The translations under genes and the position numbers were made by a program. DNA of 64,000 nt from a virus (lineage: Duplodnaviria > Caudoviricetes): positions 160,001 to 224,000 of IMG/VR virus record IMGVR_UViG_3300031555_003626, one strand, 5' to 3'. The notes under the pieces were generated by a model. That model saw only the letters and a list, made by a program, of their open reading frames with translations, was not told the origin of the DNA and searched no databases. Positions 2,016 through 36,093 of this stretch are shown one piece after another. Numbering within the stretch: position 1 is the first letter of the stretch; every line of letters begins with the position of its first letter.

Positions 2016-2230
2016 TGGATAAGAAATTTCTTTATGGCGCTCGTGATACTTTGACTGGGAAGCTTGTTAATGATATAACAAACCCCGGTCGTAAGTTTTG
2101 GGAGATACGTGGCAACTGCATGAATGCTATTAATGCATATAATAATAGGACTTCTTTTTATGGTCGCCGTCAGCACCATGGCCCACTTGAGCTCGTTACT
2201 TTCGAGCTTGTTGAAGTTAAGGAAAACTAG
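2015..2230 (+). CDS. Hypothetical protein
   Basis: ORF translationally coupled to the previous gene. Confidence 0.6.
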   Translation: MDKKFLYGARDTLTGKLVNDITNPGRKFWEIRGNCMNAINAYNNRTSFYGRRQHHGPLELVTFELVEVKEN

Positions 2231-2458
2231 CAGTAGTTGAAACACCTGAAGAAATTTATGATAGGCTTTATCCGCCTAAGATTGGTACATTCAGTTACTG
2301 CTCCGGCGTGGCAGATATAACAGCAGATAATATATGTGTTCAAGCAGTAGAACCTATACCAGAAGCTGCGTCTATCAAAAAGTCTGCGACAAAGAAAACA
2401 TCTACCAAAACAGTAGAAGAACACTAAAAATTTTTAAAGCAGGGTTGGTGAAATAGTT

Positions 2459-25785: not shown

Positions 25786-26712
25786 ATGGCTAAGTTGATT
25801 ATTTTATGTGGGCTTCCTGGAAGTGGAAAGAGCTATTATGCTGCCCAGCTATGGCGAAGAGAAAACACCTTTGATGAGCCTACTGCAGTAGTACACTCTT
25901 CAGATGCTATAAGAAAAGAACTTTTCGGCGATGCAGGCTCGCAGGAAAATAATGCTCTTGTATTTGAGACTATGCATAAGAGAGTAAAGGACGACCTTAG
26001 AGCAGGTAAGACTGTAATTTATGATGCAACTAATATTACTCGAAAGTCTCGTCGTGGAATAATCAATATGACTACTAAAGACGATATTGTTGAGTGCCAT
26101 ATTGTTTGGGCGCCTGTTGATACTTGTATTAAGCGAGATGCCAAGCGCGAGCGCCACGTAGGTAGAGAAGTAATTGATAAGATGATTCGTCGTTGGCAGA
26201 GCCCACATAAGTCTGAAGGTTTTACTTGTATCGATGTTATCTGCTCAGACCCTAACTTTGATCAGACTAAGTACGTAGCAATGCAGGCTGACCAAATGCA
26301 TATACCCCATGACAACCCCCATCACACTCTTGGTGTTTGGGATCATTGTATGCAGGCTTATTACTATCTTTGCCAGCAGCCTAATATCAATGATGACCTG
26401 AAGACTGCTACAATGTGGCATGATATCGGAAAGCCTTATACTAAATCGTGGCATATCGATAAAGTAAACGGAGCAGTAGATTATTCACACGCTCATTATT
26501 ATGATCATCATTGTGTTGGCGGCTATCTTGCTTACGGACTTTTCTTACATAAGGATTTTGATGAGGAAGATGTAGACTTTATGTGTTGGGTGAGCTGGCT
26601 TATCTGCAATCACATGGAGCCTTTCTTTAACTCTCATTGGTATAGAGAACTTCCTGAGCACTTGAAGCAGCCTATTGATATATTGCATGCCGCTGACGTT
26701 TCTGCACATTAA
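25786..26712 (+). CDS. Polynucleotide kinase (P-loop, AAA_33-like) fused to an HD phosphohydrolase; RNA end-healing type
   Basis: GLPGSGKS, SSDAIR, YDATN, R...R in the N-half; HH.L...DH, WHDIGKP, HME and AD in the C-half. Confidence 0.85.
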   Translation: MAKLIILCGLPGSGKSYYAAQLWRRENTFDEPTAVVHSSDAIRKELFGDAGSQENNALVFETMHKRVKDDLRAGKTVIYDATNITRKSRRGIINMTTKDDIVECHIVWAPVDTCIKRDAKRERHVGREVIDKMIRRWQSPHKSEGFTCIDVICSDPNFDQTKYVAMQADQMHIPHDNPHHTLGVWDHCMQAYYYLCQQPNINDDLKTATMWHDIGKPYTKSWHIDKVNGAVDYSHAHYYDHHCVGGYLAYGLFLHKDFDEEDVDFMCWVSWLICNHMEPFFNSHWYRELPEHLKQPIDILHAADVSAH

Positions 26713-26862: not shown

Positions 26863-26963
26863 AAAATTGAGATACTACTTTATTATAAGGCGGTGGCTTA
26901 TTTTGGTTTAGATCAAAAAGCTACCGTTATTTTATTTTGATTTTATTTAAAAGGAGATACATT

Positions 26964-34070: not shown

Positions 34071-34547
34071 ATGCGTACTGATTTAATTAATAAAAAAGAA
34101 TTAATTTTAGAATGGATTGCCGAGGAACTTCCTAAAAGTGAGATGGCAAAACGTCTGGGTTGTAAACAAGAGACTCTTAATGCTTATTTAGTTAAAATGG
34201 GTATTACATATGTGGGTCAGCAGGCTAAAAAAGGTCAACAAAAGGGGCCTAATAAGTATAAAGATTCTTCTTACTATACTAAAATTGGCGGCCCAAGGAT
34301 TCACTCTACTGTTCTTAGACTAAAGTTAATTCGTGATGGTATTAAGGAAGATAGATGTGAACGTTGTGGTAATTCTCATTGGTTAGGCATTAAGCTTCCT
34401 TTAGAATTACATCATAAAGACGGTAACCATTATAATAATGAATTAACAAATTTAGAAATTCTTTGTCCAAATTGCCATGCTGTTTCTGGGGATAACGCTG
34501 GAGCAGCTGTTGGAAACTATATAACATATGCGGAAGTGACGGAATAG
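34071..34547 (+). CDS. HNH homing endonuclease with N-terminal HTH
   Basis: CERC...LELHHKDGNHYNN...NLEILCPNCH. Confidence 0.9.
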   Translation: MRTDLINKKELILEWIAEELPKSEMAKRLGCKQETLNAYLVKMGITYVGQQAKKGQQKGPNKYKDSSYYTKIGGPRIHSTVLRLKLIRDGIKEDRCERCGNSHWLGIKLPLELHHKDGNHYNNELTNLEILCPNCHAVSGDNAGAAVGNYITYAEVTE

Positions 34548-35075: not shown

Positions 35076-35132
35076 TAAAAAATTATAAAATTTAAATTAA
35101 AATTTTAAAAAATATATTGTATAATATATTAT

Positions 35133-36007
35133 ACGGGCCTGACCGATAACTTCCCGTAAGGGAATGAAAGAGGTAGACTGACAAGACCTCGCTGTGATGA
35201 GCAGTACCTCAGGCAATGTGTGACGGGACCTGTAAGAATTGAAAAGATTCTTACGAATATGCTAACCCCATGTTCTAACTTATCAATGATGAAATGAAAA
35301 GAGTTTAGTTGAGGGTCAACTGACTGAGCTATTCTCGCTCTCGCAAGGAGCTGGTTTCAACGCAAAAGGATTTGATGAGGTAAGGTAAGCTACAGGAAGT
35401 AAAATAGTTCGAGATTTAGCAGTCAAGGGCGACTTCCATTTATATCTGCTATGGTGGATATAAGAAATGTAAGTACAATGCGACGGAAAGCATTGAAGGC
35501 GGGTAGCATTCTTGCATTCAAAAGGTGTGAGAACTACAACAATAGTCTGTCTTCTGTCAAACTCAACTTAGCGTGGGTTGGAATCCCACCCGGTGTGCCA
35601 ATTTATCTTTTAGAGATAGTTCGCACCTATCTCATTATATACACCGGTAGCTCAGTGCTAGAGCGGCTGTGATAGGAAAACAGTGTCATGAGTAAAAACC
35701 TATTGTTGGAAACAAAGAAAAGTGTCTTAAGCCCACAGTGGTAAGCAATGTGGGATACATGGTGTCACAAGCATTATGTATTTGATTGAAACGAATCTAT
35801 AGAGGCGTAGCAACTTCGAACAGCCCGCAAGGTTGATAGTGGAGTGATAATCGAGTAATTGTTTCCGTAAAGGCGAACGCAAGCCTGGAGCCCTTGTGCT
35901 GGGGTGACGAATTGCAGGCATGAGCGGTACTTCCCAAAAGGAAGTGGAAATGTGACTAAAAAATAAGGTCATTAAGCCGTAGCAACTGTAAGGTGTATTC
36001 TCAGCCT
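35133..36007 (+). ncRNA. GOLLD-like giant RNA with an internal permuted tRNA-like domain
   Basis: About 870 nt after a promoter; many GNRA hairpins; ends AAGGTGTATTCTCAGCCT, matching the GOLLD 3' end as recalled. Confidence 0.65.
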
Positions 36008-36093
36008 TTTATTTATCTTACTATTTAATACTAATTGTTCCGAAAGGCGCTCTAAGGCAGGGATGAAATGCCCCTGTCAATTAGTATTTTTAT

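Follow-up and report, generated by a model that had tools for sequence, protein, structure and literature searches.

A circularly permuted tRNA-like domain with conserved tRNA-type processing signals in the linker of a phage GOLLD RNA

The window analyzed here was a 64,000-nucleotide stretch of DNA corresponding to bases 160001 to 224000 of the 233-kb record of an uncultured virus. The window contained a tRNA array that extended from about 29.0 to 36.9 kb, and tRNA genes flanked a GOLLD RNA on both sides. The positions of the GOLLD RNA and its parts are listed in Table 1. The earlier note on this DNA had called the region GOLLD-like, and the Rfam covariance model for GOLLD (RF02032) confirmed the assignment, scoring 156.3 bits at positions 35494 to 36007 versus a gathering score of 150. 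Full-length GOLLD matches were obtained with nhmmer in L098, L045, L111, L159, L148, L150, L153, L146, and L138, and the entire 875 nt was collinear among relatives. A blastn search of the GOLLD region against GenBank phages returned no match.

The promoter-like sequence located just upstream of the GOLLD RNA was conserved in relatives, and its match to the consensus suggested that transcription starts near position 35133. The earlier note had assumed that the two flanks of the tRNA-like element were parts of one RNA. This assumption was borne out: there was a single promoter-like site ahead of position 35133, a scan of the spacer at 35601 to 35640 found no promoter or terminator, and the flanks were collinear in relatives. 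The idea that the flanks are two separate transcripts was rejected because the spacer held neither signal and because the spacer of one relative, L150, was only 17 nt long.

Several other features were observed in or near the tRNA array. Three tRNA genes (29586 to 29737, 30811 to 30944, and 31447 to 31642; Leu-UAA-like, Gln-UUG-like, and Lys-UUU-like, respectively) were split inside the anticodon by inserts of 66 to 125 nt. Each insert was itself tRNA-shaped and in normal order, with a 7-bp acceptor, a T arm with the loop UUCAAGU, and an NCCA end, and removal of the insert restored a 7-nt anticodon loop in all three genes. The split genes were missed by ARAGORN and were matched by Rfam with large gaps. 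At 31861 to 32020, an Rfam tRNA match of 31.8 bits had a variable region enlarged by an insertion of roughly 87 nt and was not called by ARAGORN. A gene for a polynucleotide-kinase-like P-loop protein (25786 to 26712) was located just upstream of the array, an HNH endonuclease gene (34071 to 34547) was located within it, and a 668-aa open reading frame at 26937 to 28943 had no Pfam match. Between the GOLLD 3' end and tRNA-Glu(CUC), at 36020 to 36090, a long inverted repeat (ATACTAATTG ... CAATTAGTAT) enclosed small hairpins and was followed by a T run. This repeat could represent a terminator or else a further small structured RNA.

The linker of the GOLLD RNA, between RF02032 model positions of about 100 and 109, was filled by a circularly permuted tRNA-like domain (35568 to 35685). 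The order of the domain was variable loop, T arm, acceptor 3' strand, G73-CCA, 40-nt spacer, acceptor 5' strand, D arm, and closed anticodon-type arm, after which the GOLLD 3' domain resumed. The earlier note had described a tRNA 3' half that preceded its matching 5' half, with a 40-nt spacer between them. All of the elements that it listed were found where it had placed them, and the acceptor strands CCGGTGT and ACACCGG formed Watson-Crick pairs at seven of seven positions, as it had claimed. Three parts had been absent from that first reading, namely, the anticodon-type arm (35666 to 35684), the variable-loop nucleotides (35568 to 35572), and a swapped elbow pair in which G56 was matched with C19. 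The unusual T loop UUGGAAU was matched by an unusual D loop, AGUGCUA, and U8, A14, A21, a G in place of G46, and the T-loop A58 were all present.

When the halves were artificially joined in the un-permuted order, ARAGORN called a tRNA with the anticodon AGG. In contrast, no linear-order tRNA was detected at 35500 to 35750 by Rfam (E values up to 10) or by ARAGORN. The minimum-energy fold of the domain recovered the T arm, the acceptor, the spacer hairpin, and the anticodon-type arm; the thermodynamic z-score of this fold was unremarkable (-1.2). The anticodon-type loop was 9 nt in the window and was 8 to 13 nt and variable in the relatives described below, which indicated that the domain cannot decode.

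Table 1. Positions of the GOLLD RNA and of the parts of its tRNA-like domain in the window
Feature	Position	Strand	Detail or basis
Promoter-like site TTAAAA, 17 nt, TATAAT	35097-35125	+	Consensus match; just 5' of the GOLLD start
Whole GOLLD RNA	35133-36007	+	About 875 nt; Rfam RF02032 and nhmmer full-length matches
GOLLD 5' domain	35133-35493	+	Upstream of the Rfam-matched 3' region
Rfam-matched GOLLD 3' region	35494-36007	+	RF02032 model positions 1-416
GOLLD hairpin preceding the variable linker	35494-35555	+	Rfam model positions 1-62, cmscan alignment
Variable-loop nucleotides UUAGC	35568-35572	+	G35571 in place of G46; C35572 is position 48
T arm GTGGG-TTGGAAT-CCCAC	35573-35589	+	5 bp; loop UUGGAAU; G35580 is position 56
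Acceptor 3' strand CCGGTGT	35590-35596	+	Pairs with 35641-35647
Discriminator G73	35597	+	Sequence
Encoded CCA	35598-35600	+	Expected 3' terminus of the mature 5' piece
Spacer, 40 nt	35601-35640	+	A/U-rich tail, hairpin, then leader AUUAUAU ending in A-U at -2/-1
Spacer hairpin	35613-35619/35627-35633	+	Loop UUCGCAC
Predicted RNase P site, between U-1 and A+1	35640/35641	+	Predicted from the acceptor/T stack, elbow, NCCA, U-1, context of real tRNAs, and M. smegmatis YrlA precedent
Acceptor 5' strand ACACCGG	35641-35647	+	Followed by U8-A9 (TA)
D arm GCTC-AGTGCTA-GAGC	35650-35664	+	Loop AGUGCUA; G15 is 35655, G18 is 35657, C19 is 35658
G26 and closed anticodon-type arm	35665-35685	+	Arm 35666-35684; GCUGU/ACAGU; 9-nt loop GAUAGGAAA

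Relatives were sought by scanning viral, metagenome, and genome contigs with patterns for GOLLD hairpins that are specific to this clade, and the scans yielded both close and more distant relatives. The permuted domain was found in every relative whose linker was on the contig (L045, L098, L111, L127, L138, L146, L148, L149, L150, L153, L159, L162, L163, and L164), which, together with the window, gave 15 members from uncultured phages. These members carried 10 distinct acceptor stems, each of which was paired at seven of seven positions, and the AACUUAG context around the variable loop was near-invariant among them. Two other patterns were less productive. An exact 21-nt junction pattern had no matches in viral contigs, and the matches to a loose hairpin pattern with a variable gap were mostly due to chance, as the GOLLD 3'-end motif accompanied just 4 of 117; by luck, four true relatives were included.

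A covariance model of the permuted domain, with 12 members as input, was used to scan 1.45 Mb of phage loci. The members scored 124 to 176 bits, other full matches scored 39 bits or less, and the best of the non-member matches were ordinary tandem tRNAs. The domain was present in a single copy in the phage's own genome and, among the loci scanned, was confined to GOLLD linkers. The earlier note had called for a survey of GOLLD linkers for permuted tRNAs, and the scans placed them in the 15 members of one clade and in none of 19 other GOLLD loci, for which shuffled sequences gave about 1.1 weak pattern matches per set. Ordinary-order tRNAs were present in the linkers of 2 of those 19 loci (L007 and L017). 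In a control, the pattern T arm...GCCA...gap...TAGCTCAGT also caught seven ordinary tandem tRNA pairs, and their "acceptor" strands paired at only 1 to 4 of 7 positions. A comparison with the 98 tRNAs of these loci revealed no close match that would point to an origin from a particular tRNA.

Two additional arrangements were noted among the GOLLD loci. A sister clade (L137:3659-3731, minus strand; L049:2080-2150) had the same 3' hairpin, and its linker contained a weak pseudo-tRNA in ordinary order and without CCA (Rfam tRNA score of 33.4 bits in L137). In L149 (positions 2099 to 2260, minus strand), which is a low-coverage metagenome contig, a degenerate tRNA 5' part consisting of a D arm and a 5-bp arm with an 8-nt loop preceded the permuted domain and replaced the GOLLD hairpin and 5' domain. 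Possible explanations of the L149 arrangement are an intermediate of duplication, recombination, and chimeric assembly of the contig.

Pairing and covariation were analyzed in a MAFFT alignment of 14 sequences. In this alignment, 99.7% of the cells at proposed pairs were paired, versus 81% in shuffles and 33 to 55% when the partner was slid, and 16 of the 23 pairs changed on both sides. All seven acceptor pairs covaried and were 100% paired. Covariation was also observed at four of the five anticodon-stem pairs (98.6% of cells paired) and at three of the five T-stem pairs, and the D stem was invariant. Both of the tertiary pairs covaried with 100% pairing: 15:48 was G-C in eight sequences and A-U in six, and the elbow pair 19:56 was G-C in nine and C-G in five. 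In the case of the spacer hairpin, six of seven pairs covaried and the loop was semi-conserved as nnn(G/C)CAC. The spacer ranged from 17 to 45 nt among members, and the 17-nt spacer of L150 had no hairpin. An open anticodon stem, in which CAAC (35564 to 35567) would pair with GYUG (35666 to 35669), was considered and rejected; it was 68.8% paired, which equaled the shuffle mean, and showed no covariation, and the local hairpin was supported instead.

Comparison of the members shows that the domain folds as an L-shaped tRNA core that consists of four stems and the 15:48 and 19:56 pairs. The comparative support for this fold is about as strong as alignments of this kind can provide, and we consider it nearly certain that the tRNA fold is under selection. 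The permuted arrangement is not a chance occurrence, given that it was conserved with covariation in 15 GOLLD RNAs and that the tandem tRNAs caught in the control paired at so few acceptor positions.

The members also shared a set of nucleotides at the two ends of the spacer. Specifically, NCCA was invariant in 15 of 15 members, as were the A at -2 and the U at -1, and these nucleotides were kept while the acceptor differed at all seven positions and the spacer varied in sequence and length. The 98 genuine tRNA genes of the same loci had a similar context, with a T at -1 in 90, an A at -2 in 78, and an encoded CCA in 95. Bacterial RNase P classically recognizes its substrates by an acceptor of 7 bp that is stacked on a T stem of 5 bp, together with an intact elbow, NCCA at the 3' end, and U-1. 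All of these features were present in the domain and were kept in 15 of 15 members. Based on these signals and on the precedent of a cleaved YrlA RNA in Mycobacterium smegmatis, we propose that RNase P cleaves the GOLLD RNA in vivo at 35640/35641, and we place the probability of this reading at roughly 0.6. Subsequent trimming to a free CCA end has slightly less than an even chance. The conserved CCA could instead be a mere RNase P contact or an internal binding site and never a free end. A T-box-like partner for NCCA was sought among the GOLLD alignment columns, and none was complementary to the discriminator across subclades. A gene for a CCA-adding enzyme was sought in the phage and none was found.

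The chain enters the domain via the variable loop and proceeds through the T arm to the acceptor 3' strand with its encoded G-CCA. After the 40-nt spacer loop, it continues through the acceptor 5' strand, the D arm, and the anticodon-type arm and exits into the GOLLD 3' domain. The tRNA-like domain forms the joint between the GOLLD 5' cap domain and 3' body domain, and we infer that it serves as a substrate of the host enzymes that mature tRNAs. In the proposed mechanism, RNase P would cleave the RNA between 35640 and 35641, and the freed spacer would be trimmed back toward the CCA at 35600. The products would be about 468 nt and 367 nt in length, and the two pieces would be held together by the 7-bp acceptor stem and the elbow.

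The GOLLD cage of env-38 has been solved, and the linker in that structure was unresolved by cryo-EM, lay inside the cage, and pointed inward; the 5' cap and 3' body were separate domains whose only other connection was one A-minor bridge (bioRxiv 10.1101/2024.12.08.627333). Multimeric cage assembly in the present clade is assumed by homology. By analogy with the env-38 cage, the tRNA-like domain would point into the cage interior. The permuted order would allow processing and exposure of a CCA end without disconnecting the GOLLD domains; an ordinary linker tRNA, if matured, would sever them. This suggests a reason for the permuted order, namely, that the RNA can be processed while its two domains stay together.

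An alternative to cleavage is that the domain is a structural tRNA mimic that is never cut. The RNA would be covalently closed, the spacer hairpin would be part of the mature RNA, and the domain would either provide a rigid joint or offer a handle to a tRNA-binding factor in the cage, such as a modification enzyme, the ribosome, or a defense or anti-defense protein. This explanation is possible, but we are inclined to doubt it. An excised and degraded spacer needs no selected hairpin, so the covarying hairpin with its semi-conserved loop counts against cleavage; selection on the hairpin argues that the spacer has a role as RNA and keeps the uncut mimic alive as an explanation. However, the hairpin is missing from L150, and a closed loop leaves it unexplained why NCCA and A-U are invariant while the sequence between them varies and why they agree with the sequences that flank genuine tRNA genes of the phage. 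The comparison with YrlA RNAs also points in both directions. Most YrlA RNAs, described as permuted tRNAs in which a loop closes the acceptor, are not cut (bioRxiv 10.1101/312249; PMC4201824), and the Rfam YrlA model aligned with positions 35547 to 35692 (27.2 bits, local E value of 4.8e-4), but the 7-bp acceptor is the very feature that makes M. smegmatis YrlA an RNase P substrate (PMC4201824). Two points about other GOLLD RNAs were counted against cleavage: no separate product of the mycobacterial GOLLD pseudo-tRNA was detectable (PMC6582537), and, according to speculation in a review, tRNAs embedded in the cage may be impeded in their maturation (PMC12990946). The cage may shield the linker.

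Another idea, which extends rather than replaces cleavage by RNase P, is that the cut RNA is also aminoacylated, with a use of CCA like that of tmRNA or of viral tRNA-like structures. In favor of charging, the tRNA core is complete, with NCCA and an acceptor of 7 bp, and the same possibility was raised by the authors of PMC4201824 for the cleaved M. smegmatis YrlA. We nevertheless consider aminoacylation of the CCA end unlikely on the sequence evidence, as the members share no single conserved identity set. The discriminator and first pair switch by subclade (G73 with A1-U72; C73 with G1-C72), there is no G3-U70 (pair 3:70 is A-U, G-C, C-G, or U-A among members), the C73 members lack a G at -1, and the anticodon loops of 8 to 13 nt are variable. 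In addition, ARAGORN and Rfam yielded no tmRNA matches.

The domain might also be a gene that encodes a decoding tRNA in permuted order, with the halves rejoined during maturation in the red-algal or archaeal style. The un-permuted join called by ARAGORN, the polynucleotide-kinase-like gene of the phage (25786 to 26712), and the three array tRNA genes with tRNA-shaped inserts would fit such a gene, but the anticodon-type loop of the domain has 9 nt (8 to 13 in relatives) and is not conserved in sequence. Furthermore, both flanks are conserved GOLLD domains, so release of a tRNA would destroy the GOLLD RNA, and the element was found only in GOLLD linkers; a decoding role is very improbable. Even less credence can be given to the notion that the domain is a chance match or a nonfunctional remnant left behind when two tandem tRNA genes lost their outer halves. 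Tandem tRNAs do occur throughout the array, and the extra degenerate D and anticodon arms that precede the T arm in L149 resemble a duplication intermediate. However, every stem and two tertiary pairs had compensatory changes among the 14 to 15 members, the halves are exactly complementary with no leftover pieces, and ordinary tandem tRNAs pair at just 1 to 4 of 7 acceptor positions.

Under the RNase P cleavage proposed here, the GOLLD RNA is expected to exist as two pieces whose ends lie exactly at 35600 and 35641. No function is known for GOLLD despite the solved cage structure (bioRxiv 10.1101/2024.12.08.627333, PMC6582537). The findings show that, in one GOLLD clade, a tRNA-shaped domain under strong selection makes up the linker and retains signals for tRNA maturation, and these signals tie GOLLD directly to the tRNA-processing machinery. 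A more speculative idea, to which we attach a low probability, is that, once RNase P has cut the RNA, every protomer in the cage of the present clade displays a tethered tRNA-like domain with a free, possibly aminoacylated CCA end. If this were true, each cage would carry about 14 CCA ends, provided that the clade assembles like env-38, and GOLLD would serve as a scaffold on which numerous tRNA acceptor ends are presented. Such a scaffold could, for example, be a sponge or decoy for host enzymes or defense toxins whose targets are the acceptor ends or elbows of tRNAs, or it could hold a reserve of charged ends. Such a role would provide the first functional handle on GOLLD.

Ordinary tRNAs or pseudo-tRNAs are known in the variable GOLLD linker J13/15 (bioRxiv 10.1101/2024.12.08.627333; PMC12990946; PMC6582537). 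The RNA described here belongs to the same family and has its insert at the same place, but the order of the insert is permuted, and processing at the acceptor end would leave the GOLLD domains base-paired and release no tRNA. A published description of a permuted tRNA in GOLLD was not found in the literature searched.

Two-piece tmRNA is produced from a permuted ssrA gene in which the CCA-ended 3' half is encoded upstream of the 5' half; the intervening segment is removed, and the pieces are held by the acceptor stem. The earlier note had pointed to two-piece tmRNA as the parallel for the GOLLD domain. The shared topology, in which a CCA-ended acceptor piece comes first, stood up to scrutiny, but the likeness went no further. 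The GOLLD domain lacks the G3-U70 alanine identity pair and the tag reading frame with pseudoknots, it has full D and anticodon-type arms, and neither ARAGORN nor Rfam called a tmRNA at the domain; YrlA is the closer relative. In red algae and some archaea, permuted tRNA genes give rise to free decoding tRNAs via a circular intermediate that involves a splicing endonuclease and a ligase. The GOLLD domain resembles these genes, which are mentioned in PMC4238349, in that the 3' half precedes the 5' half and the acceptor strands are complementary. It differs in that its anticodon-type loop cannot decode and its flanks are functional RNA domains.

The closest known system is the YrlA-type permuted tRNA mimic (RF02553), especially the YrlA of M. 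smegmatis. In the paper on the YrlA structure, most YrlA RNAs are presented as circularly permuted tRNAs with closed acceptor loops (bioRxiv 10.1101/312249). M. smegmatis YrlA is the sole YrlA with a 7-bp acceptor, and RNase P cleaves it both in vitro and in vivo (Chen et al. 2014, PMC4201824). In cells, it is found as 82-nt and 65-nt halves, the 5' half is trimmed and gains its terminal CCA, and both halves coprecipitate with Ro60; the YrlA of S. Typhimurium and Yrn1 of D. radiodurans escape cleavage (PMC4201824). The GOLLD domain shares with YrlA the order of variable loop, T arm, acceptor stem, and D arm, as well as the same tRNA tertiary contacts (the Levitt pair and the elbow), and RF02553 aligned through the T arm, acceptor, and D arm of the domain. 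The score of 27.2 bits, however, was far under the RF02553 gathering score of 69. The GOLLD domain also lacks a Ro60-binding helix, as its flanks do not pair, and a search of the 233-kb phage genome for Ro60 (TROVE, PF05731) gave no match when controls were found; a copy may exist in the host. In addition, the anticodon arm of the GOLLD domain is a closed hairpin, with the break at 43/44 rather than through an open anticodon stem. The GOLLD domain has an encoded, invariant NCCA, its acceptor is closed by a spacer of 17 to 45 nt instead of a short loop, and it is embedded in an 875-nt RNA.

The phage genome also contained three tandem YrlA-like units at 29045 to 29460. Each unit followed its own TATAAT-like box, started with AGAGCCAAT, and had the form of a permuted tRNA mimic whose 7-bp acceptor was closed by a 3- to 6-nt loop, with no long spacer. 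The Rfam YrlA scores of the units were 43, 24, and 31.9 bits versus the gathering score of 69. The combination of NCCA and spacer was absent from these mimics of the same genome, which argues that this design is specific to the GOLLD domain. Based on these sequence comparisons, we rate the GOLLD domain as a YrlA-type permuted tRNA mimic that has retained tRNA processing signals and has been built into GOLLD. YrlA-type permuted tRNA mimicry, known from small RNAs bound by Ro60, is thereby extended to a giant RNA of a self-assembling family.
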